A stretch of 64,000 bases of DNA. It comes from an uncultured Clostridia bacterium. Its GTDB lineage: Bacteria > Acidobacteriota > Aminicenantia > UBA2199. The position numbers and the translations under genes are program-made. The notes under the pieces were generated by a model, which saw only the letters and a program-made list of their open reading frames with translations, ran no database searches and had not been told where the DNA came from. The stretch's first letter is position 1. Each line of letters starts with the position of its first letter. Shown in pieces: positions 8,917 to 29,045 of the stretch. The stretch lies in the NCBI GenBank assembly GCA_964491915.1, contig CAZBHS010000030.1:653-64652 (forward strand), given 5' to 3'.

Positions 8917-10743
<1,827 letters not shown>

Positions 10744-10760
10744 ATCTCCCTCCTCAGGTT

Positions 10761-12140
10761 TTATTTAAAATGAGATAACTGGGTTTTCCCTAATGGATAC
10801 ACATTGAAGCCCATGTGATACAAATCATGGTGGTTTAAAATATTCCTTCCATCAAAAATAAACGCCGGCTTCTTCATTGATGCAAAAATTTTTTGGTAAT
10901 CAAGCGACCGATATTCATCCCATTCCGTGATGATGGCAATCGCGTCGGCGCCTTCGGCGGCTTTGTATGGATCCGGTTCATACGTCACCAATTGATCGAT
11001 TCCTTCAAGATCAATTCTGGCATTGTCCAAAGCCTTGGGATCGCTGATGATTACCTGCGCATGTTCCTCCAAAAGTTTCCTGGTGATATCGATGGCGGGC
11101 GATTCCCGGGTGTCTCCGGTGTTTGCTTTAAACGCAAATCCGAATAGCGCGATTTTTTTATTCGCCACAGTGCTGAACATCTCTTTGACAATCTGCCGTA
11201 CAAAACGGTCTTTCTGAAAATCATTCATTTTGATGACCTGATGCCAATAATCCGCCACTTCGTCAAGGTGATAGCTCCGGGCGATGTAGACAAGGTTTAG
11301 GATGTCCTTTTTGAAACATGAACCGCCGAATCCCACACTGGGATTCAAGAATTTATTTCCAATCCGGGAATCGGCGCCAACTGCGTAGGAGATTTCAGCG
11401 ATATCGGCATCTGTCTTCTCGCACAACGCGCTGATGGAATTGATGGATGATATCCGCTGCGCCAGGAACGCGTTGGCTACCAATTTGGACAATTCGGACG
11501 ACCACAAATTGGCGGTGATGATCCGGTTTTCCGGCAACCAGTGTCTATAAATAGCCGCGATCTCTTCCGCCGCCGCCAGGCCTTTTTCAGTTTTATGGGA
11601 GCCGATGAGGACGCGGTCGCCTTCCAACAAATCGGAAATCGCTGTGCCTTCGGCTAAAAATTCAGGATTGGATACGACTTCGAAATGAAAATCCTTGTCA
11701 TTTGCTTTAAGAATCCGTTCCATCGCTTCGGCGGTCCGCACCGGGAGCGTGCTTTTTTCGACGATTGTCTTGTCGCCGTTCGCATGCTCGACAATCTGGT
11801 GGGCGGTTTTTTCCCAATATTGAAGGTCGGAAGCCATCCCCGCCCCTTCGCCGAATGTTTTGGTCGGTGTATTGACGGAAACAAAAATAATATCAGCTTC
11901 CCGGATACCTTCCTCCACGTTGGTGTCGAAAAAAAGGTTCCGACCGCGGCATTCCCGCACAACCTCATCGAGTCCCGGCTCGAAAATCGGCAGATTATCG
12001 GAGTTCCATTGTTTGATTTTTTCATGATTTATATCAACGACATTCACTTTGTATTCGGGGCACTTTAACGCGATTACAGCCATTGTGGGCCCTCCCACGT
12101 AACCCGCTCCTATACACAAGATATTTTTCTTAAATTCCAT
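10761..12140 (-). CDS. ugd: UDP-glucose 6-dehydrogenase
   Basis: 459 aa with Rossmann motif GAGYVGGPT and catalytic-Cys motif GFGGSCFKKD. It has the long (eukaryote-like) UGDH layout. Confidence 0.93.
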   Translation of the reverse strand: MEFKKNILCIGAGYVGGPTMAVIALKCPEYKVNVVDINHEKIKQWNSDNLPIFEPGLDEVVRECRGRNLFFDTNVEEGIREADIIFVSVNTPTKTFGEGAGMASDLQYWEKTAHQIVEHANGDKTIVEKSTLPVRTAEAMERILKANDKDFHFEVVSNPEFLAEGTAISDLLEGDRVLIGSHKTEKGLAAAEEIAAIYRHWLPENRIITANLWSSELSKLVANAFLAQRISSINSISALCEKTDADIAEISYAVGADSRIGNKFLNPSVGFGGSCFKKDILNLVYIARSYHLDEVADYWHQVIKMNDFQKDRFVRQIVKEMFSTVANKKIALFGFAFKANTGDTRESPAIDITRKLLEEHAQVIISDPKALDNARIDLEGIDQLVTYEPDPYKAAEGADAIAIITEWDEYRSLDYQKIFASMKKPAFIFDGRNILNHHDLYHMGFNVYPLGKTQLSHFK

Positions 12141-12151
12141 GATCTCTCCTT

Positions 12152-13255
12152 TCAGATCTGTATATTAAAATAATGTTTGTACCAATCGACAAAATGTGAA
12201 ACACCTTCCTCTATCGATGTCTCAGGTTTGAAGCCCACATAGTCGTACAATGCGTCTATGTCGGCGTATGTGGCGGGGACATCTCCCTTTTGCATCGGTA
12301 GATAATTGATATTGGCTTTTTTCCCGATTTTTTCCTCGATGATCTGGATAAATGTCTTTAGATTCACCGGTTTGTGATTGCCAATGTTAAAAATCCTGTA
12401 CGGCGCTTTCGATGTCGCCGGATCCGGGGCCATTCCGTTCCATTCGGTGTTTGGCACGGGTACTCTCAACATTACCCGGTACACGCCCTCGACAATATCG
12501 TCAATGTAGGTAAAGTCGCGCTTCATGTTGCCGTGATTGAATACATCGATAGGAACATCCTCGACTATTTTTTTTGTAAAAATAAAAGTCGCCATGTCTG
12601 GGCGTCCCCAGGGGCCGTAGACGGTAAAAAATCGAAGACCGGTGGTGGGAACACCAAATAGGTGGGAATAGGTGTGGGCCATCAATTCACTGGATTTTTT
12701 GGTGGCCGCGTACAACGAGATTGGATGGTCCACGTTGTGGTGAACCGAAAACGGCATTTTTTCATTCGAGCCGTAAACGGAGGAAGAGGAGGCGTAAGCC
12801 AGGTGTTTTACCGGGTGGTTGCGACAATTTTCGAGAATATTCAGAAATCCTGTAATATTGCTCTGAATGTAGGCGTGAGGATTCTCGAGGGAATAGCGAA
12901 CGCCGGCCTGAGCTGCTAAATGAACGACATAATCCGGTTTGGTTTCTTGAAAAATGTCATTGATCATCGCGGTATCCGTGAGCTCTGTTTTGTAGAATTT
13001 CAACAATGGTTGCGCGTCTGCGGTGATCGCGGAATTTTTTACTAAGGCGTTGACATCCTCCGGGGCGAAACCCAATGTCAACAACCGGTCCGTCTTGAGT
13101 GTCGGCGAGTAGTAATCGTTGAGGTTATCGATGCCAACGACATGAATACCTTGAGCGATTAATTTTTTTGTAAGGTGAAAGCCAATAAATCCTGCCATCC
13201 CGGTGAGAAGCACTTTTTTCTCACAATTCCGATTCGGTGTGTTTTTCTCTTGCAT
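12152..13255 (-). CDS. NAD-dependent epimerase/dehydratase, probable UDP-glucuronate 4-epimerase
   Basis: 367 aa extended SDR with GMAGFIGFHL (GxxGxxG) and YAATKKSSE (YxxxK). Its position immediately downstream of ugd supports a UDP-GlcA substrate. Confidence 0.8.
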   Translation of the reverse strand: MQEKNTPNRNCEKKVLLTGMAGFIGFHLTKKLIAQGIHVVGIDNLNDYYSPTLKTDRLLTLGFAPEDVNALVKNSAITADAQPLLKFYKTELTDTAMINDIFQETKPDYVVHLAAQAGVRYSLENPHAYIQSNITGFLNILENCRNHPVKHLAYASSSSVYGSNEKMPFSVHHNVDHPISLYAATKKSSELMAHTYSHLFGVPTTGLRFFTVYGPWGRPDMATFIFTKKIVEDVPIDVFNHGNMKRDFTYIDDIVEGVYRVMLRVPVPNTEWNGMAPDPATSKAPYRIFNIGNHKPVNLKTFIQIIEEKIGKKANINYLPMQKGDVPATYADIDALYDYVGFKPETSIEEGVSHFVDWYKHYFNIQI

Positions 13256-13454: not shown

Positions 13455-14189
13455 CTAACGCAGATTGAATGTAATCGTGACTGTGAACACCACGGGTTTT
13501 GGGACTCCGTTCACGATGTAAGGTTCGTAAATCCATTGGCGCACCGCCGCCACCGCCGCGTTTTTCAACAACGGGTGACCGGAGATGACCTTTGTTGTCT
13601 TGACATTCCCGTAGATATCGGTGACCGCTTCGATAATAACCACGCCTCTGACTCTGGCGATCATCGCTGTTTTGGGATATTGCGGTTCGATGCGGCGAAC
13701 CAGTTTCGGCGCCGTGACCTGGCTGACTCTCAAAACCGGAGCATCCGTCGCCTCGCCCATACCGCCCATCACGCCTTCCCAGGAACCGCCGACGATTCCT
13801 TCGTCGAATCCACCCACCACGCCGTCGGGATCTCCAAATTCAGGTAGCTCTTCTTCTTCGATGGTTGCCGGCGGCGCCAAAGGCGCCACAAATTGAGTGG
13901 TGGGGACAGGCTTGGGTTTCGCTGCCCGCGGCGCCTTTTTCTCGGTATTGGGGCGACGGCCTTTGCCTTTGCTTGCGGGCTTGCCTGCCGGAGGGGTCGG
14001 TAGGGGAGGAGTGGTCAATGTCACACTGGTGACTTTCAGTTCCGGTAGTTGAGTGGACGCGTCCATCAACGGGGCAACGATTAGGGTGACCGCGATCAAG
14101 GCGTGTAAGAGGGCGGAAAGCGGAAACAAGAGCCAGGTCTTGGTCTTTTGTTTTTCCACCATCACACTACTAAACAATTTCTTTTCCAT
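13455..14189 (-). CDS. tonB: Energy transducer TonB family protein
   Basis: It has an N-terminal TM anchor, a Pro/Lys-rich spacer (PPLPTPPAGKPASKGKGRRP..KPKPVP) and a C-terminal TonB domain (PQYPKTAMIARVRGVVIIEAVTDIYGNV...). The start was set at the ATG preceded by GAGGAGG (MEKKLF...), not the upstream ORF-track start at 14228. Confidence 0.85.
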   Translation of the reverse strand: MEKKLFSSVMVEKQKTKTWLLFPLSALLHALIAVTLIVAPLMDASTQLPELKVTSVTLTTPPLPTPPAGKPASKGKGRRPNTEKKAPRAAKPKPVPTTQFVAPLAPPATIEEEELPEFGDPDGVVGGFDEGIVGGSWEGVMGGMGEATDAPVLRVSQVTAPKLVRRIEPQYPKTAMIARVRGVVIIEAVTDIYGNVKTTKVISGHPLLKNAAVAAVRQWIYEPYIVNGVPKPVVFTVTITFNLR

Positions 14190-14199
14190 TGTAACCTCC

Positions 14200-14499
14200 T
14201 CATGGGTCCATGGCTTGTGTCCTTCCACCCATAAGATGTGCTAAATGGAAGATTTCTTCGTCCTGTTTCCTGTTTCCGGTCAGGTTGAAGAGAAAATTTT
14301 TGGAGGCTATCGCCTGGGACCCGGCAACGAAGATTGCAATCCTGGGTGACGAATAGGGTGATACCCCTGAAGCCTCCGATAATATAGCGTGGGCCTCTTC
14401 GTTCACCTCGAAAAGGTTCAGTTCGTTGATATCGAACACCAGATATTTGTCCAGACGCTTGAGTAGGTGTAGCTCTTTTGTTTGCAGTAAATCCGTCAT
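14200..14499 (-). CDS. Hypothetical 99-aa protein (N-terminus faintly PqqD/RRE-like)
   Basis: Open frame with plausible codon usage but a weak RBS. The segment YLVFDINELNLFEVNEEAHAIL resembles the strand-strand-helix start of peptide-recognition (PqqD-like) domains. No other support. Confidence 0.35.
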   Translation of the reverse strand: MTDLLQTKELHLLKRLDKYLVFDINELNLFEVNEEAHAILSEASGVSPYSSPRIAIFVAGSQAIASKNFLFNLTGNRKQDEEIFHLAHLMGGRTQAMDP

Positions 14500-14654
14500 A
14501 TCAGGTTCTCTTACTCCTTTTCATTTTCAGAAAAATCCCGAAATAAACCATCGTTATCCTCTCAAAATGAAGATAGGCAAGGCTAGTCTAGATTAATGCC
14601 GGGAAATAAGTATAAAGAAACAAAAGATAATTATCAATGTGGGCATTTACGACG

Positions 14655-14673
14655 ATCTCTTGGCTCGTGAATG
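14655..14673 (+). repeat. 19-nt motif ATCTCTTGGCTCGTGAATG, copy 1
   Basis: Exact copy of 18792-18810. It lies ~40 nt upstream of the -35 box of the methyltransferase promoter. Confidence 0.9.
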
Positions 14674-14711
14674 CCGTTCGACCGGGCGGGGAGAAGCGGC
14701 GGAGAATTGGA

Positions 14712-14739
14712 TTGACATTTCTTTTCATATTGTTATAAT
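14712..14739 (+). promoter_or_regulatory. Sigma70 promoter (near consensus) for the methyltransferase operon
   Basis: TTGACA-16 nt-TATAAT with an extended -10 (TGtTATAAT). The -10 ends 9 nt before the ATG at 14749 and no Shine-Dalgarno is visible, which implies a leaderless or nearly leaderless mRNA. Confidence 0.6.
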
Positions 14740-14748
14740 CAAGAGCAA

Positions 14749-17700
14749 ATGGATAATCTTGCATTATTATATAAAACGTTAGATTACCAAAATGGGAATC
14801 TCCTTCCGGCTACAGACGATCCTTCACATTGCGAAAATGAAACCGATTGGGTCGAAAAGGGAGAATGGTTATCCGCTGCAAAAAGAGCGGGCGCTGAAAA
14901 AGTTTTCTTCGTCGAAAACAATCCGGTTGTCATATTCGCAGAATGCGGCGCTCAATTACAAGAAAAAGTCAAGACTTTTAACCGGGTGTGGAGTTTGGCC
15001 CGCCCCAGAATTCTGTTTTTGGCGTCTCCTGGCGAGATAACGGTTTATGACCTGGCGCAAAAACCGGTGGATGAAAATAAAGAGAGGGAATGGAGCAAAC
15101 TCAAGCATCTCGATGTGTTCCGGCAGACACTCGACGTGACCAAACAGCTCCAGGCATATCATCGCGATCATCTGGAATCGGGACGCCTCTTTGCCGAAAA
15201 GCGGTTCGGCGATATTAAACATCGCGCAGACAAGTCGTTGATCCGGGACCTGAACACTGTTCGAACCGAGCTTGTAAACGCCGGCCTTTCGGGCGAAAAA
15301 GTCAAGTACGCCCATGCCCTCATCGGGCGCTCGATATTTATTCGCTACCTTGAAGACCGTAATATAGTGACTGAGGATTATTTTCTGGCTGTGGCGAAGA
15401 CACAAACCGGCTGGGCTGAATTGTTGGGGGAACCCGCTCCAAGAACAGGGATTGATTTCTCCCTCCAGAAAACATTCTATCCCCGGGTATTGTCGAGTAA
15501 AGAATTCACCTACGCGCTATTCAAAAAACTCGCCCGAGATTTCAACGGGGACATGTTTCCCAATGTGGATGAAGAGGAACCGGCGGTCACCCAGGAACAT
15601 CTCACGTTGATGCAGGATCTTCTCTATGGGGATATCGGCGTTCAAAAAAAATTGTTTTTCTATTCTTACCGGTTCAACATTGTTCCCCTTGATTTGATCA
15701 GTTCGATCTATGAAGCGTTTTATCATGAGACTCCCCTCAATACCTCCAAAACGAACCAGCGGCGCATGGACGGAGCTTTTTACACGCCGCCGGTTTTAGC
15801 GGAGTTTCTCCTTTCCCGCGTCCTGACACCGGAGGTATTGGAACGAAATCCGCGGGTTCTCGACCCAGCCTGCGGTTCCGGCATATTCCTGGTGGAGGCT
15901 TTCCGGCGGATTGTACGGCATAAATGGTGGGAAAAAGGGCAATTACTGACCTTCGAGACTCTCAAAAATATTCTAAAAGAACAGATCGCAGGAATCGAGG
16001 TAAACGAGGAGGCTGCGCGAATCACCGCCTTCAGCCTGTATCTCTCCATGCTCCATTATCTCGAAACACCGGCTATTGACCGGCAAATCCAATCGGGCAA
16101 CAAATTGCCCAACCTCCTGGCTTGTGATCGTCGGTCTGAGAATCATTTCCACTGCATTCTCGCGGAAAATGCATTCGATACGAAAACTATTGCCGGCTTT
16201 TCCCATTGGCAAGAGCGGTTCGGCTCTCAGAGCGTCGATGTGGTCATCGGCAATCCGCCATGGGGGGATCCAGGAACCAACGTTGATCAAAGAACCAGGG
16301 GTAGAAACGATGTTGTTGTAAATTGGTGCACATCTACGGGTAAAGCCATTGGGGATAAAGAGCCTTCGCAAGCTTTTCTCTGGCGCGCGCTCGATTTCCT
16401 GAAAACAGACGGTGTCGGCAGCATGTTAGTACCGGTAGGTGTTCTACTCAAACATCACCCCGCGTCGCAAGAGTTTCGAAAACAATGGCTACAATTTATC
16501 GAATTGACGGAAGTGTATAATTTTTCTCCTGTACGGAAAGCTTTTTTCAAGGGATCTATTTCGCCCTTTGTCGCCACGATTTTCAAAAAAAGTGTTCAAA
16601 ATCAGCGAGAGGTTCGTTATTGGTCCGTTATGCCGAGTGAGAGTATTGTAAAGAATCAAACTGTTCTGCTGTCGAGAAATAATTATAGAATCCTCATGAA
16701 TCTAGATTTGTCCGATCATCGAATCTGGAAAATTTTCTTGTGGGGCTCTAATAAAGATTATGATTTGTTATATTTTATCGAAAACTCCAGGAATACTACG
16801 ACATTAGCTGAACAAACTCTCTTGAAAGCTGTTGGATTTAAAAAAGGTAATCAGAAGCGAAAAACTCCTGCTTGGCTCTTAAAATATAAAAAAATAAAGG
16901 TAACCAATTCATTTTGTAATTATGGAAACTTACGTGATGATGCTTTTGAGAAAATGCCTCCAATGGTTGAACGTTGTGGTTCAGGTGAAGAGCTTTATCA
17001 TGGACGGCGATTGATTACTCTCGAGGCTCCCCGTCAGGCTGGAGGCGCGGATGGAAGACTCGTCGCCCGGTTTGTAACCGAGCCCTTCGCGTTTAACCAC
17101 TCGTTTCATGTGGTAAAGCTAAAAAAAGACGAGGATTGGATGTATCTTGTGCTCACCGGCGTACTCTGGTCTTCGCTGGCGCGCTATTTCCTATTTTTCA
17201 CCTCCCATTTCTGGGGAGTCTGGCGGGATAAAGTTCTGGTAAACGAGCGACAGCAACTACCAGTTATTTTTGCTAAAGAAAATCCCGCTACAGGAAAAAT
17301 CATCCGCCTCGTCGAAACGCTTCGCTCCTATCAACCTCGAGAACGGAACGCGCTTCATCCGGACGGCGTTCCGGCTGATGAGATCAAACGGCAACGAAAA
17401 CTGTGGGAAGATGAACTGGACGAAGCCGTATTCGAGCTCTATGATCTTAGCCAGGAACAAATCGATTTAATCCGCGATTTGTGCGATACAACGCTCCCAT
17501 TTTATTATAGACCGTTCAAGAGCGCCGCCCTGCAGTTGGTGGTCATCAACGATGATGTTTCCGCCATCGAATCCTACATCAAGACCTTCTGCCGCCGCTG
17601 GAACGCTTATCTGGGCGCCGATGAAGAGATGCGGGCGCAGATCCATTTAGGGGCGCACGGCAATATGGTGGCGGTGGAGTTTTTCCCCGCCGATAAGACT

Positions 17701-17958
17701 GATCCCTGGAACCTCGATGTCAGAGATCAAACCTGGAGTCATATCATCGAACAAATCGGCGAAGCATTGGCTCGACCGATGGGGACTTCGCAGGTGGTTC
17801 TGGATGGATTGCTGCACGTGATTACCGACTCGGCGATCTTTATTGTCAAACGCAACGAGAAACGATTGTGGACCCGCAGTCTTGCCCGTGAAGACGCGGA
17901 AGCAACCATTTGTAAGCGCATGGTGAACACCACGGCCAAAGGAGAAAATCACAACTGA
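14749..17958 (+). CDS. Large gamma-class N6-adenine DNA methyltransferase (Eco57I / type IIG / PglX-like architecture)
   Basis: 1069 aa. Motif X is AFYTPP, motif I is VLDPACGSGIFLVEAF, and motif IV is VVIGNPPWG. The helical domain upstream carries LIGRSIFIRYLEDR, comparable to FL.R.LF..FAED of MmeI-like enzymes. The C-terminal ~500 aa are TRD-like, with a tail ELDEAVFELYDLSQEQIDLI. Confidence 0.85.
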   Translation: MDNLALLYKTLDYQNGNLLPATDDPSHCENETDWVEKGEWLSAAKRAGAEKVFFVENNPVVIFAECGAQLQEKVKTFNRVWSLARPRILFLASPGEITVYDLAQKPVDENKEREWSKLKHLDVFRQTLDVTKQLQAYHRDHLESGRLFAEKRFGDIKHRADKSLIRDLNTVRTELVNAGLSGEKVKYAHALIGRSIFIRYLEDRNIVTEDYFLAVAKTQTGWAELLGEPAPRTGIDFSLQKTFYPRVLSSKEFTYALFKKLARDFNGDMFPNVDEEEPAVTQEHLTLMQDLLYGDIGVQKKLFFYSYRFNIVPLDLISSIYEAFYHETPLNTSKTNQRRMDGAFYTPPVLAEFLLSRVLTPEVLERNPRVLDPACGSGIFLVEAFRRIVRHKWWEKGQLLTFETLKNILKEQIAGIEVNEEAARITAFSLYLSMLHYLETPAIDRQIQSGNKLPNLLACDRRSENHFHCILAENAFDTKTIAGFSHWQERFGSQSVDVVIGNPPWGDPGTNVDQRTRGRNDVVVNWCTSTGKAIGDKEPSQAFLWRALDFLKTDGVGSMLVPVGVLLKHHPASQEFRKQWLQFIELTEVYNFSPVRKAFFKGSISPFVATIFKKSVQNQREVRYWSVMPSESIVKNQTVLLSRNNYRILMNLDLSDHRIWKIFLWGSNKDYDLLYFIENSRNTTTLAEQTLLKAVGFKKGNQKRKTPAWLLKYKKIKVTNSFCNYGNLRDDAFEKMPPMVERCGSGEELYHGRRLITLEAPRQAGGADGRLVARFVTEPFAFNHSFHVVKLKKDEDWMYLVLTGVLWSSLARYFLFFTSHFWGVWRDKVLVNERQQLPVIFAKENPATGKIIRLVETLRSYQPRERNALHPDGVPADEIKRQRKLWEDELDEAVFELYDLSQEQIDLIRDLCDTTLPFYYRPFKSAALQLVVINDDVSAIESYIKTFCRRWNAYLGADEEMRAQIHLGAHGNMVAVEFFPADKTDPWNLDVRDQTWSHIIEQIGEALARPMGTSQVVLDGLLHVITDSAIFIVKRNEKRLWTRSLAREDAEATICKRMVNTTAKGENHN

Positions 17959-18641
17959 TGCCCCGGCGCGAACTCCCTTCGTTTCGAGCAATGTGGAAAA
18001 CGCATGAAACCATATATCTGCAAATATTTTCCACCGCCCTCGAAGATCTGGTTGAGACTGATATCTCCGGTGATGAAGAAGACGCTATCTCCGAGAAGCT
18101 TACCCTCTCTCTCAAGCGGGCGTGTCTTGGACTTTCCCGCAGCCGGAACCAGGAGGTGGCGGTTCCTGTTTGGGAGGCTCCGATTCCGCCAATTGAAACC
18201 AGGGATTTGACCGGAGGAAAACGCGGAAAACGCCCTGATTTTACCTGCACCTGTCAAAATTTTCACGCCCAATCGCCTGAAGATTATGAAGTTTCCCTCC
18301 ATGTGGAATGCAAACGCCTGGGCAACCCCACCAGCCCCTCCTGGAATCTCAACGAAAATTATGTGAAAAATGGAATCAAGCGCTTTGACTGTTCCAGTCA
18401 TAAATACGGCAATCAAGCGCCCTCCGGCCTAATGATCGGATACATCACCGCAAAGGATCCCGGCGACATAGAGCGGGAGGTGAACGGATATCAAAAAAAA
18501 CACACGCCCCACTGTCCACCTATCAATTTTAATTCTTCAAGTGGAGTTATTCGAAAAACAACACAAGTGTTATGCCGAAAGAATGTCGAGCCCGGTCAAT
18601 TTAAATTATTTCATATGTGGGGCGACTTCAGAAGTCAATAA
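17958..18641 (+). CDS. PD-(D/E)xK-type nuclease candidate
   Basis: 227 aa. Its start overlaps the methyltransferase stop (TGATG). It has the motif KRPDFTC...(17 aa)...SLHVECKRL, i.e. PD ... E-x-K. Confidence 0.6.
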   Translation: MPRRELPSFRAMWKTHETIYLQIFSTALEDLVETDISGDEEDAISEKLTLSLKRACLGLSRSRNQEVAVPVWEAPIPPIETRDLTGGKRGKRPDFTCTCQNFHAQSPEDYEVSLHVECKRLGNPTSPSWNLNENYVKNGIKRFDCSSHKYGNQAPSGLMIGYITAKDPGDIEREVNGYQKKHTPHCPPINFNSSSGVIRKTTQVLCRKNVEPGQFKLFHMWGDFRSQ

Positions 18642-18791
18642 TTCCCAGATTTTGATTCTAGTATTTCTCTCGGTTGCAAACTTTAGTGCAGATCGGCTTC
18701 AGGTGATGCCCACCGTGTGACACCCCTACAAAAGGCCTAAACCCTCACACAGATTGGAATATCCGACTCATCTTGCCTGACTTTGATTGAT

Positions 18792-18810
18792 ATCTCTTGG
18801 CTCGTGAATG
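18792..18810 (+). repeat. 19-nt motif ATCTCTTGGCTCGTGAATG, copy 2
   Basis: Exact copy of 14655-14673. Here it overlaps the putative -35 (TTGGCT) of the CHAT-STAND gene promoter. Confidence 0.9.
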
Positions 18811-18826
18811 TTGTTTGCGTTATAAT
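18797..18826 (+). promoter_or_regulatory. Sigma70 promoter candidate for CHAT-STAND-TPR gene
   Basis: TTGGCT-18 nt-TATAAT. It is followed by a ~60-nt leader containing a small GC hairpin (GCCGGG-gagg-CCCGGC) and RBS AGGAGG before the ATG at 18888. Confidence 0.4.
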
Positions 18827-18887
18827 GGAGAAGATAGTCTGCAACCAAGGACCGGCCGGGGAGGCCCGGCTAAATTTAGGAGGAGCT

Positions 18888-21800
18888 ATGGCGGTGGAGT
18901 TTGACGTTCGGTTTGAATGGAGTAAGGCTGAGGAGAATCTCTGGATGGTGAGAGTGCTGGCGGATGGAAGCGAGGATCGGGGAGAGGTTGATAAAAAGCA
19001 GATCGAGGCGATTGAGGAGGAGTGCAAGCATCTGGATTGGCGGCGGTCTGTTGAGTTGGGACGGAGGATCGGCTCGATATTGTTTCGAGTGATCGATGGG
19101 GACAGGCACGTGTTGAGTGAGGCGTTGAAGGATGCCGGGAATAAGGGAGAGCGGCTGATGATAGGTGTGATGGCCGATGGTCCAGCCCGGCGATGGCCGT
19201 TTGAGTTGTTGTTTGACGATGGTTTTCTCGTTCCCTTTCGAGTGGATCTGGTGAGACGGGTAGAAGACGGGGATAACGATATAAGCATCCAAACGCAGGA
19301 CCGGCAATTGCGGATACTGTTCATGTCTTGCTCGCCTTTGGGCGTTGAGCCGGTGCTCGATTTTGAGCTGGAAGAGGACGCTCTTTACCGGTTTACAGAA
19401 AGCCTTCCGGTTCACATCGATGTGGAGGATACCGGGTCCCTCGTAGGGCTCGATGAACGGCTCGATGAAGAGTACGATATTATCCACCTGTCCGGGCATG
19501 CCGACATCGACCGCGACAATGATTCGCCTATTTTCTTGATGGAAGATGAACTCGGACAACCGGTGAAGGTAATGCCGGAAGAGCTTTCTCGAGTACTATC
19601 TAAAAATTCGCCCCGCTTGCTCTTTTTATCCGGTTGCCGAACCGGCCAGGCGCCGGACGATGCGGCGGCTTATTCCTTTTCCCGCCACATGGTGATGATG
19701 GGAATCCCGGCGGTGATTGGTTGGGGACTCCCGGTCTCAGACGCCGGAGCCATCCAGGCGGCCAGAAAGTTTTACCTGGAGCTTGGGCGAGGCGAAGATA
19801 TTCTCGCAGCCCTTCATCTAACCCGCAGATTCCTCTTCCGCGATAATATCAAAGACTGGTGCCTCCTACGGCTTGAGGCGAACAACCATCATCTAAGTAT
19901 TCCCCTGGTAAAAAAGGGACAGGCTCCTCCCACAAACCCACGACAAACTCTGCATTCCTCCCTCGAAGGCACACAAGTAAAGATACTCGAACGTGGCTTC
20001 ATCGGTCGCAGGCGGCAGATTCAATCGTCGCTCCGTGTACTCAAACATGACGACTCCAAAATCGGTCTCCTGATCCACGGAACCGGCGGCCTCGGCAAAA
20101 GTTGCTTAGCGGGAAAGCTCTGCGAACGCCTCTCGGAGCACCAACTCATCATCGTTCACGGCATCCTCGACTCGATCGCTCTACTCGAAGCCGTCAAAAG
20201 AGCCTTTCAAAAAGCCGGAGACGAAGAAGGGCTGCAAATTCTAGAACAAGCTCTCGAACTACCCGACAAGATGATGATGCTCTGCAACTCAGTGTTTAAA
20301 AAAAAGAGCTGTCTCTTCCTCCTCGACGATTTCGAGCAAAACCTCCCCAACGCCGATAAAGGAGATTTGACTCTCGCCCCCCTGGCGCAAGAAGTACTTC
20401 AAGCTCTACTAAATTCTCTCCCAACCACAAACAAGAAGACCCAGCTCATCATCACCTGCAGATATCAGTTTCCCATGATCACCAACCACTTGCAGCCAAT
20501 GTCGCCGGACAGTTTCCGAGGCCCCGACCTCCAGAAAAAAATCAAAACCCTTGACGCCATCAACCGCTTCTCCGACCCAGCCATCCGGCAGCTCCTCATC
20601 ACCGCCGGCCGAGGCAATCCCCGCCTCCTGGAAGCCCTCGATACCCTCATCAAAGAATCCCCCGATACAGACTTCGAATCCCTCCTCGAAAAAGTCTCGC
20701 ACCAGCAGGAAGAGTTCGTCCAACGCCTGACTCTCCAGCGAATCATCGCCTCCCAACCACCCGATTTCACCCAATTCCTCCGCCACGCCGCAGTTTTTTT
20801 CGCACCTGTCCCCAAACAAGGACTCGAAAACGTCTGCCGCCACATCCCCAACTGGGAATCCCACAATCAAAAAGCCGTCCAGCTCAGCCTAATGGAAGCA
20901 ACCATAGTCGCCAACAACCCCAAAGAGTTCTGGCTCACCCCCATGCTCCGCCAAGAATTATTCGCTCAACTGTCCTCCGAGGCCCAACTAAAATGCCACC
21001 AATCCGCCGTCCAGTATTATCTCCCCCTCATTGAAGAATTAGATGATGATAAACCGCATTCATCCATCCAACTCATCGATCACGCCCTCGAAGCCGACAT
21101 GCCCGACGAAGCCGTCCTCGCCGGCGGCCCGCTGTTGAAATTTTTAGGAGAACATTTGGCCATTCAGCCTGCGCTTTTTTACGGACATGCGATTGCCTCC
21201 GTCGTCTCAGAAGCAAAAAAGACCGAAAAGCTATCACTTTTTTGGACAGAGCTAGGCCTTATTCTCAATCAGACAGGTCATTCGGAAGAAGCCATAGATT
21301 GTTTTTCAAAGTCATTGTATATTGATAAACAAATTTATGAGGAGTATCATCCAGAGATTGCCACAGATCTCAACAATCTGGGTGCAGCATATTCAGAACT
21401 TGGAGATTTCCAAAAGGCAATCGAACTTCATGATCAAGCATTCGTCATCAGCAGACAGATCTACGGAGAGCGGCACCCGGATGTTGCTACCTGCCTGAAC
21501 AGCCTGGGGGCGACTTATAAATTATTCGGAAACTACAACAAAGCGATTGAATTCTTTGAAAAAAGCCTCGCCATCAAAAAGTTGGTTTATGGAGAGGGGC
21601 ATTCAGAGCTTGCCACAGATTTCAATAATCTGGGATCGGCTTATGAAGCGTTTGGTGACTTTCCTAAAGCAATCAACAATTATGAAAAAGCCCTCGCCAT
21701 TGTCCGGGATGTGCATGGAGAGGTACATCCGAATGTTGCCTCAACGCTTTCCAATCTGGGGACATCCTATTATTCTCTAGGCGTTGCTCCAAAGGCGATT

Positions 21801-22310
21801 ATCTTTTTTGAAAATGCCCTTGCAATAATTACTCAGATCTATGGAGAGCACCATCCGCTTGTTGCAACCTTTCTTAACAATCTTGGGGCTGGATACTATT
21901 CACTTGGCAATTTCCCTAAAGCGATTGAATTCTATGATAGAGCCCTTTCTATTGTTCAGGCATTGTATGGAGAAATACACCCACATGTTGCCAGTACGCT
22001 TAACAATTTGGGAGCGGTAAACAATTCTATTGGCGACTATCAAAAGGCCGTCGAATACAGTGCAAAGGCACTTGCTATCGGTAGGCAAATTTACGGAACA
22101 TTGAATCCGAATGTTATCGCTTTTCTAAGCAACCTGGCATCAGCGTATGAATCACTTGAGGAGTACAAAGTGGCGTTCGAATGTGTAAGCCAAATGTATA
22201 AAATTATTTCTGATTTCTTGGGTCCGGATCACCCGAACTCTCAGAACGTTCAAATGGATTTGCATAGGCTTAAGCAGCGGGTAGAGATGGGGGAGTTGTT
22301 GGAAAAATGA
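18888..22310 (+). CDS. CHAT (caspase-like) protease - STAND/NB-ARC-like P-loop NTPase - TPR repeat protein
   Basis: The start was set at the ATG after AGGAGG (MAVEFDV...). The CHAT His/Cys dyad context is IIHLSGHADID and LLFLSGCRTGQ. Walker A is LLIHGTGGLGKSCLAGKL and Walker B is CLFLLDDFEQNL. The C-terminus carries eight 42-aa TPR units. Confidence 0.87.
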   Translation: MAVEFDVRFEWSKAEENLWMVRVLADGSEDRGEVDKKQIEAIEEECKHLDWRRSVELGRRIGSILFRVIDGDRHVLSEALKDAGNKGERLMIGVMADGPARRWPFELLFDDGFLVPFRVDLVRRVEDGDNDISIQTQDRQLRILFMSCSPLGVEPVLDFELEEDALYRFTESLPVHIDVEDTGSLVGLDERLDEEYDIIHLSGHADIDRDNDSPIFLMEDELGQPVKVMPEELSRVLSKNSPRLLFLSGCRTGQAPDDAAAYSFSRHMVMMGIPAVIGWGLPVSDAGAIQAARKFYLELGRGEDILAALHLTRRFLFRDNIKDWCLLRLEANNHHLSIPLVKKGQAPPTNPRQTLHSSLEGTQVKILERGFIGRRRQIQSSLRVLKHDDSKIGLLIHGTGGLGKSCLAGKLCERLSEHQLIIVHGILDSIALLEAVKRAFQKAGDEEGLQILEQALELPDKMMMLCNSVFKKKSCLFLLDDFEQNLPNADKGDLTLAPLAQEVLQALLNSLPTTNKKTQLIITCRYQFPMITNHLQPMSPDSFRGPDLQKKIKTLDAINRFSDPAIRQLLITAGRGNPRLLEALDTLIKESPDTDFESLLEKVSHQQEEFVQRLTLQRIIASQPPDFTQFLRHAAVFFAPVPKQGLENVCRHIPNWESHNQKAVQLSLMEATIVANNPKEFWLTPMLRQELFAQLSSEAQLKCHQSAVQYYLPLIEELDDDKPHSSIQLIDHALEADMPDEAVLAGGPLLKFLGEHLAIQPALFYGHAIASVVSEAKKTEKLSLFWTELGLILNQTGHSEEAIDCFSKSLYIDKQIYEEYHPEIATDLNNLGAAYSELGDFQKAIELHDQAFVISRQIYGERHPDVATCLNSLGATYKLFGNYNKAIEFFEKSLAIKKLVYGEGHSELATDFNNLGSAYEAFGDFPKAINNYEKALAIVRDVHGEVHPNVASTLSNLGTSYYSLGVAPKAIIFFENALAIITQIYGEHHPLVATFLNNLGAGYYSLGNFPKAIEFYDRALSIVQALYGEIHPHVASTLNNLGAVNNSIGDYQKAVEYSAKALAIGRQIYGTLNPNVIAFLSNLASAYESLEEYKVAFECVSQMYKIISDFLGPDHPNSQNVQMDLHRLKQRVEMGELLEK
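21240..22247 (+). repeat. Eight tandem 126-nt (42-aa) TPR-coding units inside the CHAT-STAND gene
   Basis: The recurring unit is ..LNNLG..Y..LG.F.KAIE....AL.I....YGE.HP.VA.. (kinesin-light-chain/TPR_12-like), in phase from 21240 to 22247. Confidence 0.85.
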
Positions 22311-22490
22311 AGGTGGATGGGCAGTATTGGATAACCGGGGGGTTATATTTTATAACCAGAGGGTTGACCGGGAGAGGGGAGGATGATTGGGGGGATTGGG
22401 GAGAGGGTTGTTGGGCGGAGGTTTTGGAAGAGAGTGTGGTTGATTGGGGAGCTGGAAAGGAAATTGCACTGGGAATTTTAGGAGAACGAC

Positions 22491-23993
22491 ATGAAGCGTG
22501 CAATTTTAGTTTTTTTGATGGTTTGTTTGGCGGTTGTCGATGGCTTGAGTGGGCAAAGCGTCGAGGGGGCGGCGAATCTTTCTGCTGGAGGTGGGAGGGT
22601 TCGGAATGTTCATCCGCGGGTGTTGGTGATGAAGAGCGGGGATGTGATGGCGGTTTGGGAAAGCGGGAGTAGTAAAAGCGATAATGATATTGTTTATAGG
22701 ATTTGGAAGCAGGGGATAAATGTGTGGCATCCGCCGTTGGCGGTGGCGCCGTTTGTGGCTGTGACGGGGATTCGTAACGCGCAGTATCCGCAGTTGGTGG
22801 AAGATTTGGATGGGACTGTGCATATGAGCTTCATGGATGGGGACGCCAGTTATAACCGGGACGTTTATTATTGTTATTATAGAGACGGACGTTGGAGTCG
22901 GGCGGTGAATGTTTGTTCGACACCGGTGAATTCCGCCTGGCCGCGGATTGGTCTGGATGTGGAAGGGGGACGGCTGTATGTCTCGTGGCAACATGAGTGG
23001 AATAATAGGTTTGATGGGAAGGATATCGTTTATGTGACGAAAAAGATTGGAGAGAATGTTTGGAGCGGGATGAAGCGGTTGTCGAATACGCCGGAGCGTC
23101 AGAGCATTCATCAGGCGACGGTTTGTGTGGATGGGCGTCTGCTTGGCGTTTGGATGGACGGGTATTCGGAGCGGGATGTGTGGGGACTGCGGGCCGGCTG
23201 GGTGAAGGATAGTAATGGGAGTCGCGGCGAAGGTGTGCTGGCCGGGCCGGTGGCGGTGCATCAACCGCAATGGCCGGATGTGGCGGCGGACTCTGCGGGC
23301 GATATTTTGGGGATATTTTCGCGGCGGGACGCGCCCCTCGAATTTATATTCAAACCGGTGGATAGGGCGGATTGGCAGACCGGCTTCCTGGCGGATGGCG
23401 GGGGGATTACGTTTTTTGGCGTGACTGTGGCCCGCAATGATGTGGCTTATTGCATGTACCGGCGGAATGTGGGTGATGGCTTTTTGCCGGTGATGATCCG
23501 CTTTGACGGGGAGGTTGTGTCTGAGCCTGAACTCCTGGACCATCCGGCGATTCGACCGGCTGTTTGGCTGGGGCATATGGACGTCGATGTCTCGCTGGAA
23601 GGCAACGCTCATATGGCCTGGAGCTCGGGGCAACCGTCGCATGTGCCGACGGCGGTAGTGTATGCCCGGCAAGCGAGACACCCTGAGGCGCCGGAAGTCT
23701 CCATCGCGGTGACAAGCGGCGTGAACCGGCGATTTGAGCTGCGGGGGCAGCGGGTATCGGGGGATTCCGGGCTGCGTCATCAGTGCTGGTATGTGCCGGG
23801 GTTGGGACTCTGGACTGAAGGGGAGAGGTTGGAGTTGCAACTGCCGGACGATGGGGAGTACCGGGTCTATTATATGGTGGGGGATGGGAATCATTTGTAT
23901 GGATGCGCCGAGACAGCGCTGGGAGCGCGGGAATTTCCGGGGGTGGAGCGGCGTGATGAGGCCTTGCTTCCACAGCGCACGGATAGAGACTAG
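22491..23993 (+). CDS. Secreted repeat protein of unknown function (possibly beta-propeller/sialidase-like fold)
   Basis: 500 aa with signal peptide MKRAILVFLMVCLAVVDGLSG. It has recurring W/Y-rich strand motifs (..VW..G.., DIVY...). Preferred over the R/P/H-rich antisense ORF at 22506-24152. Confidence 0.6.
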   Translation: MKRAILVFLMVCLAVVDGLSGQSVEGAANLSAGGGRVRNVHPRVLVMKSGDVMAVWESGSSKSDNDIVYRIWKQGINVWHPPLAVAPFVAVTGIRNAQYPQLVEDLDGTVHMSFMDGDASYNRDVYYCYYRDGRWSRAVNVCSTPVNSAWPRIGLDVEGGRLYVSWQHEWNNRFDGKDIVYVTKKIGENVWSGMKRLSNTPERQSIHQATVCVDGRLLGVWMDGYSERDVWGLRAGWVKDSNGSRGEGVLAGPVAVHQPQWPDVAADSAGDILGIFSRRDAPLEFIFKPVDRADWQTGFLADGGGITFFGVTVARNDVAYCMYRRNVGDGFLPVMIRFDGEVVSEPELLDHPAIRPAVWLGHMDVDVSLEGNAHMAWSSGQPSHVPTAVVYARQARHPEAPEVSIAVTSGVNRRFELRGQRVSGDSGLRHQCWYVPGLGLWTEGERLELQLPDDGEYRVYYMVGDGNHLYGCAETALGAREFPGVERRDEALLPQRTDRD

Positions 23994-28357: not shown

Positions 28358-28486
28358 TTTGAAGTATTTATAATGAATTTTCGGGCAAGCGGATCGACCG
28401 CTTGTCCGACTATGTGATGCAGTTTGAGATAGTTTATGGAAAAAAGACGTTGGAACATGCAGAATGAGAATTTAGGAGGAAGTATA

Positions 28487-28687
28487 ATGCGTACAAAAAA
28501 AACAAACAAAAAACTATCTTTGAAGAAGATGACCGTTAGCAGCCTATCCGAAGGAATGCTGCGCCGGGTCAATGGCGGAGAGCCGAAAGTGAGAGCTCTT
28601 AGAACCCGCTACACCGGTTGCAACTATGAATTCGCGGGAGACAATTTGCTTACCATCGAATTGTCCTTGTGCGACCAGTGCGGCTAA
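28487..28687 (+). CDS. Small peptide with double-glycine-type leader (precursor candidate P2)
   Basis: The start was set at the ATG 7 nt after AGGAGG. The 66-aa peptide is MRTKKTNKKLSLKKMTVSSLSEGMLRRVNGG followed by EPKVRALRTRYTGCNYEFAGDNLLTIELSLCDQCG. It is paralogous to P3. Confidence 0.65.
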   Translation: MRTKKTNKKLSLKKMTVSSLSEGMLRRVNGGEPKVRALRTRYTGCNYEFAGDNLLTIELSLCDQCG

Positions 28688-28847
28688 CGCGTTAATTAAT
28701 TGATTCTCGTGATTTTGTAGCCGTTTTTCTTTTCGACATTTTTTTTCAATTGTTATGTGTGTGGATTTTCCGCTCCGTTTTTTTATTTGTTACCCGGAGC
28801 TTAATTGTTTATGTGTGTGTGTGGTGTGTATGTAAAGGAGAAGATTT

Positions 28848-29045
28848 ATGCGAACAAAAAAAACGAACAAGACGTTGTCTTTAAAAAAGGTTACAGTTAG
28901 TTCTTTGTCTGATGGAACATTGAGTCGAATTAATGCCGGCGGCCTCGAAGGCGAGGCTCTCAGGACAAGGTACACAGCGTGCAACAATGGAGCGCGCAAT
29001 GTTGCGATAATCACTGGACTATCGAATGTGGGCGTTTGTGTTTAG
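28848..29045 (+). CDS. Small peptide with double-glycine-type leader (precursor candidate P3)
   Basis: The 65-aa peptide is MRTKKTNKTLSLKKVTVSSLSDGTLSRINAGG followed by LEGEALRTRYTACNNGARNVAIITGLSNVGVCV, with RBS AAGGAG. It shares its leader and the core block ALRTRYT(G/A)CN with P2. Confidence 0.65.
   Translation: MRTKKTNKTLSLKKVTVSSLSDGTLSRINAGGLEGEALRTRYTACNNGARNVAIITGLSNVGVCV

Follow-up and report, generated by a model that had tools for sequence, protein, structure and literature searches.

A CHAT protease–STAND NTPase–TPR protein of an Aminicenantia bacterium as a candidate single-gene NLR-like switch

We analysed a 64,000-nucleotide stretch of contig CAZBHS010000030.1 (assembly GCA_964491915.1, from an uncultured Clostridia bacterium that GTDB places in the Aminicenantia), hereafter the window, and focused on one gene, 18888..22310 on the forward strand, whose 1140-residue product joins an N-terminal CHAT protease, a STAND NTPase module and a C-terminal array of TPR units. 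We judge the chance that this gene encodes a self-contained, single-gene NLR-like switch to be somewhat better than even. This reading is supported by intact catalytic and nucleotide-binding residues, by structural likeness to the NODs of apoptosomes and resistosomes and to CHAT proteases of defence systems, by a fast-evolving sensor and by the mobile, accessory distribution of the family; it is further supported by homologues that adjoin conflict genes (loci L088, L087, L083 and L089, and single neighbours matching Avs2, a type I restriction-modification (R-M) system and DinG). An NLR-like, immune role for the CHAT-STAND-TPR family is reasonable but unproven.

The switch would work as follows. 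At rest, the TPR array would keep the NB-ARC-like STAND module closed and ADP-bound. The ligand, most probably a protein or peptide and either foreign (from a virus or mobile element, for example) or a danger signal, would dock in the groove of the eight-unit kinesin-light-chain (KLC)-type TPR solenoid, releasing the lock and allowing nucleotide exchange and oligomerisation. The oligomer would gather the N-terminal CHAT domains for proximity activation, as Apaf-1 and CED-4 do for caspases; the active protease could then cut cellular proteins in trans, its own flexible loop after Cys250, or both, and growth arrest or cell death would follow as an abortive-infection-type conflict response. We infer the ligand, the oligomerisation, the proximity activation, the targets and any antiviral role.

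Architecture of the CHAT-STAND-TPR protein

The gene is intact, with 1140 residues, or 1141 codons including the stop codon that ends at 22310; an earlier note, made from the bare sequence, had rightly seen one gene and had counted the stop as a residue in giving 1141 aa. Its ATG at 18888 lies directly 3' of a strong ribosome-binding site (RBS), AGGAGGAG (18878-18885), and this start is supported because paralogues and homologues also begin MAVEF(D/N)V. A longer, TTG-started frame from 18783 was rejected as the gene on account of that shared start at 18888; between 18783 and 18888 lie a promoter-like site and the conserved leader. The effector, NTPase and repeat parts proposed in the earlier note are all present in this order, and every motif quoted there was located.

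The CHAT (caspase-haemoglobinase fold) protease domain occupies aa 1-345 (18888..19922, forward strand), and Pfam CHAT (PF12770) matches aa 150-321 at 4e-16, with 59.7 bits against a cut-off of 24. The catalytic residues proposed earlier stand: His204 (codon 19497-19499), in HLSGHAD from aa 200, and Cys250 (codon 19635-19637), in LSGCRTG from aa 247, are both invariant in alignments of 31-39 family members, which also define the invariant columns given below. H204 directly follows strand 198-202 and C250 follows strand 244-248 in AlphaFold2 (AF2) models, a predicted placement of the dyad at the ends of consecutive core beta-strands that fits the geometry of caspase-fold enzymes. The sole disordered stretch in the model is a flexible loop directly after Cys250 (aa 252-261, pLDDT<50). 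In Foldseek searches of the PDB, the N-terminal 350 residues matched Csx29 of Craspase (8eex_B, 2.1e-7; 7zoq_A, root-mean-square deviation 4.5 over 362 columns) and the CHAT part also matched SAVED-CHAT (8tl0, 3.5e-7). We had considered the N-terminal 114 aa, which match two extra loci, as a separate adaptor domain, and rejected this: the loci are truncated relics of the gene, and the region lies within the Csx29-aligned CHAT fold.

The STAND module, made up of a nucleotide-binding domain (NBD), a helical domain and a winged helix, spans aa about 370-735 (19995..21092, forward strand). It carries the pre-P-loop motif GFIGRRRQIQ (aa 370; F371 and R374/R375 invariant), followed by a Walker A motif GTGGLGKS (aa 398-405, nt 20079-20102; G398, G401, G403 and K404 invariant), a Walker B motif LFLLDDFE (aa 476-483, nt 20313-20336; D480 invariant, LLDDFE beginning at aa 478), IITCR (aa 521; R525 of IITxR invariant) and a GxP-like GRGNPRL (aa 574; N577 of GxGNP invariant). 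His704 and His732 are conserved and are candidates for the MHD-type histidine, H732 being invariant; sensor-1, GxP and MHD are putative role labels, assigned by motif position. The hhGR, Walker A and Walker B motifs of STAND AP-ATPase/NB-ARC proteins are thus all found, and Foldseek matched the NBD/helical/winged-helix arrangement.

For this module, Pfam gave AAA_16 at 2.9e-6 (28.3 bits, under the cut-off of 32.6) and NACHT at 0.016, the only matches of the window protein here, whereas eight homologues among the matches listed carry PF00931 (NB-ARC) matches. Against the PDB, a profile of the NTPase matched ADR2 (0.094) and Apaf-1 (0.55) weakly, a profile of the CHAT domain gave 8tl0 at a marginal E of 0.048, and the best single-sequence match, the P-loop of ClpC at 0.005, was rated non-significant. 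Because these PDB sequence searches were non-significant, we took the fold classification from Foldseek, and the family is evidently remote from all solved structures. The NTPase fold was nearest the STAND-TPR protein PH0952 (6mfv_A, 3.6e-9) and then CED-4 (4m9s, 9e-9), with plant matches to NRC2 (8xuq) and the NRC1 NB-ARC (8bv0, TMt 0.59); the first NACHT match, NLRP3, was at rank 43. In its modelled fold the NTPase is thus closer to PH0952, CED-4 and plant NB-ARC than to NACHT, and the STAND assignment made in the earlier note holds. The AF2 models, built from the family alignments, had a mean pLDDT of 87 at full length, and of 85 with a pTM of 0.75 for aa 1-760.

Eight KLC-type TPR units of 42 aa (aa 780-1115) and a C-terminal capping helix (aa 1116-1139) complete the protein (21225..22307, forward strand). 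The regularity reported earlier is exact: the units begin at aa 780, 822, 864 ... 1074, with a mean pairwise identity of 39%, and Pfam TPR_12 matches in eight stretches (2.8e-105), alongside TPR_10 (2.1e-60). Helix pairs run across this part of the AF2 model, and Foldseek matched the C-terminus to the TPR domains of KLC1/2, LGN and PH0952. The TPR part, the presumed ligand sensor, is also the most divergent, with 30-45% identity to the closest relatives compared with 52-68% for CHAT and NTPase, and homologues, from about 820 to 1611 aa long, differ widely in their number of units. Tandem Repeats Finder showed no repetition of the units at the DNA level, which argues against a repeat-shuffling NLR with high internal conservation.

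A sensor that varies more than the remaining protein, in genomes with several divergent paralogues, could also belong to a determinant of kin or allorecognition comparable to the HET-type NB-ARC/TPR NLRs of fungi, its polymorphic TPR array sensing non-kin proteins and bringing about protease-mediated death. The architecture is common to fungal NLRs that control heterokaryon incompatibility (bioRxiv 10.1101/2020.01.06.895854), and allorecognition has been raised for bacterial STAND systems (PMC10907252). The TPR units here, unlike those of repeat-shuffling fungal NLRs, lack high internal conservation in their DNA; cytoplasmic mixing is not evidenced for uncultured sediment organisms; and all-against-all clustering of open reading frames (ORFs) at 82 loci revealed no linked polymorphic partner locus. 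We therefore hold such a determinant to be very unlikely, and a trigger consisting of non-kin proteins met after cell contact or cytoplasmic exchange to have an equally slim chance.

A large and patchily distributed family

The candidate NLR-like switch is one of many. A word-indexed search returned >742 relatives of identical architecture, the best at 65% identity, and an exhaustive search of 1.84 billion representatives by profile gave 1,661 clusters (counted at 50% identity) at E<=1e-30, rising to 11,457 at E<=1e-10. In one-genome-per-species data, 184 stretches encode relatives. Hosts include Aminicenantes, ANME-1/Methanophagales, Halobacteriota, Theionarchaea, Marinimicrobia, Desulfobacteria, Nitrospirota, cyanobacteria and myxobacteria, and at least ten copies lie in one 'Magnetobacterium' metagenome-assembled genome (MAG). 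Archaeal and bacterial members share 45-49% identity over about 1100 residues, a likeness that points to horizontal spread. A search of plasmids gave six distant matches only, four of them cyanobacterial.

We searched the window genome and its 40 closest relatives and found the family in five of the 41 (the window genome and four others, in three of 29 genera). Copies accumulate in the larger genomes (5.2-8.1 Mb), with 6-8 in each of three, and relatives of 2-3.5 Mb have none; the family is large, patchy, accessory and often multi-copy in large genomes. LepA encoded in the window is 81-85% identical to proteins labelled Aminicenantes or Acidobacteriota, and marine-sediment metagenome runs contain the sequence, which makes the source a probable Aminicenantes genome of marine sediment; exact matching of the window protein and three housekeeping proteins against the cluster collection returned none of them. 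The 5.5-Mb MAG of the window has ten CHAT-domain matches in total. Its family copies are the window gene, at least two further paralogues and truncated relics: contig C78 carries a full paralogue about 60% identical to the window protein, a paralogue on C138 ends at the contig edge with the TPR tail of a further copy 5' of it, and C21 has two truncated relics (L001, G000:C21:8000-24000, at 4926-5375 and 10582-10926, both on the reverse strand). From the promoter through the leader to roughly codon 80 the C21 relics are identical to each other; in one of them about 85 N-terminal residues are joined in frame to the final TPR unit, giving a product of 149 aa.

Neighbourhoods of the gene and its relatives

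Nine homologue contexts annotated by Pfam proved mixed in content. Conflict-type genes stand in some: a trypsin-STAND, a caspase C14, PDDEXK and ParE at L088; prophage-like genes, a DUF4365-TPR protein and Dcm at L087; and PIN-VapB toxin-antitoxin pairs at L083 and L089. L091 has a DUF433/DUF5615 pair and L084 radical-SAM peptide maturases. The L087 gene at 11703-13082 (reverse strand) encodes a DUF4365-TPR_12 protein, a nuclease-like N-terminus on a similar TPR array, with the Dcm methylase and a series of small genes of prophage type beside it. Across 149 immediate neighbours from about 45 genomes, a tally made with no matched control set, so that its counts carry no enrichment statistic, the commonest PADLOC models were generic ATPase and MTase ones and the commonest Pfam families were Fer4, Radical_SAM, AAA_22 and PIN, with 3-5 proteins each; single strong PADLOC matches were to Avs2 (2e-130), a type I R-M system and a type IV DinG.

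Several results weigh against an immune reading of the switch. Each PADLOC family occurred in <=5 of the 149 neighbours; defence and mobile genes lie in a minority of homologue contexts, with no fixed partner, and the clustering of the 82 loci yielded no conserved neighbour in the close family. The contexts at L085/L086 and L090 are housekeeping ones, with ribosomal proteins (L11/L1/L10 in L085) and translation factors (L090). A search of 2.9 million viral contigs found no homologue. No Avs, bNACHT or NLR-like PADLOC model matched the window protein at E<=0.01, and the R-M module next to the gene appears to be an insertion rather than a co-regulated partner, as set out below. The STAND fold by itself does not imply immunity either, because 198 of 589 prokaryotic STAND clades are defence-associated and are interspersed with non-defence clades (PMC13581612).

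Some of these results would suit a non-immune switch in regulated proteolysis, in which the STAND-TPR part senses an endogenous state (stress, development or the envelope) and the CHAT domain processes specific proteins, much as HetF does. HetF is a CHAT protease in cyanobacterial cell division and heterocyst differentiation. A CHAT gene neighbouring the homologue at L083 weakly matches the NCBIfam HetF model (6e-10), homologues lie in the ribosomal and translation-factor regions just named, and PADLOC's validated defence models leave the window protein unmatched; many STAND clades are, moreover, regulators and not defence systems (PMC13581612). The family's patchy, multi-copy distribution and relics, which show rapid gain and loss, speak against a regulator of this kind, as do its spread across archaea and bacteria and its fast-diverging sensor, both atypical of a housekeeping regulator; nor was a conserved target or regulated operon found alongside in the 82 clustered loci. 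We rate this explanation as unlikely.

Genes for secreted and peptide-modifying proteins recur near a few relatives. The C78 paralogue lies inside an array of five 337-aa secreted DUF5128-type beta-propeller genes (L002, 220-1233, 5585-6598, 6927-7940, 8004-9017 and 9285-10298), two of which encode identical proteins. The related metagenome contig L083 has a C78-like DUF5128 arrangement together with the PIN/antitoxin pair and a third, HetF-like CHAT gene, and in another Aminicenantes MAG a DUF5128-type gene stands directly upstream of a family member (L028:8755-9618). At L084, 955-4135 (reverse strand), divergent upstream of the closest homologue, are a 43-aa ORF, a 527-aa SPASM protein and a PapB/SCIFF-type radical SAM maturase; the 527-aa protein combines a SPASM domain with a signal-peptidase-I-like region, and the three genes look like a cluster for a ribosomally synthesised and post-translationally modified peptide (RiPP).

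Such genes raise the alternative of an Aminicenantes-lineage receptor for an endogenous or competitor peptide or an envelope signal, which would couple RiPP-like signalling to a caspase-fold protease and would not sense viruses. DUF5128-type genes, about 0.4% of genes in the genome background, adjoin C78 (five), C138 (a remnant), C21, L083 (three) and L028; radical SAM/SPASM maturases adjoin the C21 relics, and L084 adds two maturases and the 43-aa ORF. GG-leader peptide genes lie in the window 6 kb downstream (28436-29045). The best NCBIfam match of the TPR part is an FxSxx-COOH system TPR protein (3.6e-46), under its cut-off and spanning generic TPR repeats only. AP-ATPase-TPR proteins are coupled to peptide-processing systems (Kaur et al., PMC7159879). 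Counted over the whole family, radical SAM is not enriched, at 12 of about 1000 neighbour ORFs (1.2%) against 56 of 4241 in the genome (1.3%), and the lack of any conserved neighbour in the close family tells against this receptor too; the DUF5128 linkage is limited to one lineage, in part reflecting duplicated or orthologous loci, and the window copy itself has no adjoining DUF5128 or radical SAM gene. We regard the receptor as decidedly unlikely; that the ligand of its KLC-type groove would be a radical-SAM-modified or GG-leader peptide, or a product or fragment linked to the secreted DUF5128 propellers, is similarly doubtful, and an analogy to AP-ATPase-TPR proteins tied to FxSxx/radical SAM peptide systems has a comparably small chance of holding.

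For the candidate NLR-like switch in the window, the immediate surroundings offer no partner. The other window neighbours are TonB, a UDP-glucose dehydrogenase, an epimerase, a 486-aa protein with a hydrophobic N-terminus, a secreted 500-aa protein and a Reg_prop/Y_Y_Y/AraC regulator, and PADLOC matched none of the neighbours outside the R-M module; the defence island suggested in the earlier note is weak on this count and on the minority of defence genes near homologues. The 500-aa protein, just 3' of the gene at 22491-23993 (forward strand), has a signal-peptide-like N-terminus and a weak, sub-threshold BNR_4 match (a sialidase-type propeller), and no PADLOC or NCBIfam match. PADLOC and Pfam showed no protease substrate or gasdermin-like gene among the window neighbours, in agreement with the earlier note, and no cas genes among the eight genes flanking the locus; gasdermin is not in the 25 most frequent families among homologue neighbours, nor are cas families in that tally of the 149 neighbours, apart from the one type IV DinG.

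A conserved gene for a product of 107-131 aa, with a single hydrophobic helix in its middle (for example LATIATIVGIVGG), stands directly upstream in distant members of the family, at L046:9498-9893, L064:9241-9633, L070:1933-2256, L074:2228-2563 and L075-L082 (about 9492-9824). Their hosts are cyanobacteria, Opitutaceae, Nitrospirales and Anaerolineales, and the small gene is possibly the EACC1 partner of System 4 caspase systems. No small ORF occurs in the 246-nt spacer upstream of the window gene, which holds promoter and leader only, and none is conserved in its close relatives.

The promoter and the R-M module upstream

The gene has its own sigma-70-like promoter, TTGGCT-18-TATAAT (18797..18826, forward strand; ten of 12 consensus matches), followed by a conserved 5' leader at 18827..18887 with AACCAA, a CCGG-N10-CCGG hairpin (18852-18869) and the RBS. 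We aligned the upstream regions of the window copy, the four other copies in the genome (C78, C138 and two on C21) and two genes on L083: the order is TTTGCGTTATAAT ... TCAAaCCAaCTGAAACCAAAC, the short hairpin and CAGGAGGAAAC-ATG, and the TTTGCGTTATAAT box is conserved 5' of all paralogues and of the two L083 genes. Copies lie at 18813-18887 in the window, L002:1968-2060, L003:623-715, L001:5376-5468 (reverse strand) and L083, 5' of 4993+75 and 10001; the promoter and leader are not present at L084, the 65%-identical homologue. Rfam gave no match in 14400-22600, and the leader thus belongs to no known RNA family; its hairpin is weak, and any function it has is putative.

A separate neighbouring module, 14749..18641 on the forward strand, encodes a type IIG-like methyltransferase of 1069 aa (PADLOC REase_MTase_IIG, 2e-47; Pfam N6_Mtase, Eco57I and MmeI_Mtase) and a 227-aa ORF with no PADLOC or Pfam family match. 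This 4.1-kb R-M module is flanked by an exact 19-nt direct repeat, ATCTCTTGGCTCGTGAATG, which has only these two copies in the 5.5-Mb genome even when two mismatches are allowed. The right copy (18792..18810, forward strand) overlaps the -35 box of the CHAT gene promoter; the left copy (14655..14673, forward strand) comes without a -10 box and is followed by GACCGGGCGGGGAG, a degenerate copy of the leader hairpin (14674-14705, compared with 18850-18869). The methyltransferase has a promoter of its own at 14712-14739, with 12 of 12 consensus matches, 40 nt beyond the left repeat copy. The shared upstream motif noted earlier is thus a repeat that flanks the module, not a regulatory element, and the module looks like a secondary insertion upstream of the CHAT gene that duplicated its upstream region; the two genes would have no common operator. 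Contigs from four marine-sediment runs over 13800-19600 span the R-M/CHAT junction, and at their depth of about 5x they contain no joints of an empty site without the module.

A second cassette is bracketed in a like manner: the C21 relics flank a gene for a 373-aa DUF5128-like secreted protein and two for radical SAM/SPASM enzymes (496 and 504 aa). Two distinct cassettes in the genome are therefore flanked by duplicated 5' pieces of CHAT genes, and the 5' end of the CHAT gene may be a recurrent integration site. That the window gene is itself a decaying or inactive family member, as the truncated C21 relics and an R-M insertion immediately 5' of its promoter might suggest, we find improbable in the extreme, given a reading frame intact over 1140 codons, the retention of every invariant residue for catalysis and nucleotide binding, a promoter and RBS of its own with the conserved leader, and a confident model (pLDDT 87).

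Comparison of the candidate NLR-like switch with known systems places it in a large known class. The CHAT-AP-ATPase/NB-ARC-TPR architecture is attributed by citing papers to Koonin & Aravind 2002, and Dyrka et al. 2020 (bioRxiv 10.1101/2020.01.06.895854) list CHAT among the domains often found at the N-terminus of bacterial NB-ARC/TPR NLRs. Caspase-STAND fusions have been treated as conflict systems (Kaur et al. 2020, PMC7159879; PMC10907252), and Apaf-1-like bacterial defence STANDs with caspase-like N-termini are described (PMC13581612). The architecture has been known since the early 2000s, and the gene is a typical member of this class, not a new type of system. With the bacterial and archaeal CHAT-NB-ARC-TPR NLRs it shares the three-part layout, the logic of effector, NTP switch and repeat sensor, and the patchy expansion in large genomes; it differs in that its clade occurs mostly in uncultured lineages of anaerobic sediments (Aminicenantes, ANME-1, Theionarchaea and Nitrospirota), not in cyanobacteria or actinomycetes, and in being solo, with no adaptor or partner. 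We know of no CHAT-effector/TPR-sensor NLR with an experimental test, a trigger or a substrate.

The earlier note had also assigned the protein to the Avs/bNACHT type. Avs1-5, Avs7 and bNACHT are indeed built in the same three parts, with an effector at the N-terminus, a STAND NTPase and a TPR-like sensor at the C-terminus, and Avs proteins oligomerise upon binding a conserved phage protein; to our knowledge, the characterised Avs effectors are nucleases or NADases. The window effector is a protease, its NTPase is nearer NB-ARC, CED-4 and PH0952 than NACHT, and its sensor is a short, regular KLC-type array of eight TPR units where Avs sensors are large and bilobed. PADLOC matched the window protein only to two TPR models and, weakly, to SAVED_CHAT (1.6e-4), so the assignment to Avs or bNACHT falls away.

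Comparable in design is the apoptosome of the Apaf-1/CED-4 type, likewise an NB-ARC-type NOD with a caspase-fold protease, and CED-4 is among the best structural matches. Because the protease is fused to the NOD in the window protein, direct proximity activation is suggested; the differences are a TPR sensor in place of WD40, a fused rather than CARD-recruited protease, and a protease of the CHAT branch, not a caspase or metacaspase. PH0952 of Pyrococcus horikoshii (6mfv) is the top structural match of both the full-length and the N-terminal models, and the shared NOD-plus-TPR layout suggests a similar autoinhibition by TPR; the match covers the NTPase-TPR part, has no CHAT counterpart and runs at 15-17% sequence identity. 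The EACC1-caspase systems ('System 4', PMC7159879) also set an N-terminal caspase-superfamily peptidase before variable C-terminal STAND and repeat modules, but the window gene and its close relatives have no small upstream gene with a single transmembrane helix, and lie outside that system.

The best protease-domain matches, Csx29 (a TPR-CHAT protein of the type III-E Craspase) and SAVED-CHAT (of type III CRISPR/CBASS-like systems), have a CHAT domain that is inactive until a sensor acts. Activation there comes from Cas7-11 and target RNA or from a cyclic nucleotide via SAVED, as against a fused STAND NTPase in the window protein; the TPR of Csx29 is N-terminal and that of the window protein C-terminal; and both systems encode substrates nearby (Csx30, PCaspase), which the window locus does not. 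No cas match lies among the eight flanking genes to suggest the Cas7-11/gRAMP and Csx30/31 association of Craspase, and no gasdermin match is adjacent, which sets the gene apart from Craspase and from gasdermin-protease systems.

The gene alone leaves the general picture unchanged, the architecture being textbook and the defence role inferred. What it adds is a well-defined, partnerless clade (the 1,661 clusters) common to archaea and bacteria of anoxic sediments, and its single-gene nature could make it a convenient candidate for heterologous tests. Fusions of a caspase-fold protease to an Apaf-1/NLR-like switch are the prokaryotic equivalent of the apoptosome and are central to ideas on the origin of the eukaryotic machinery of cell death and innate immunity.

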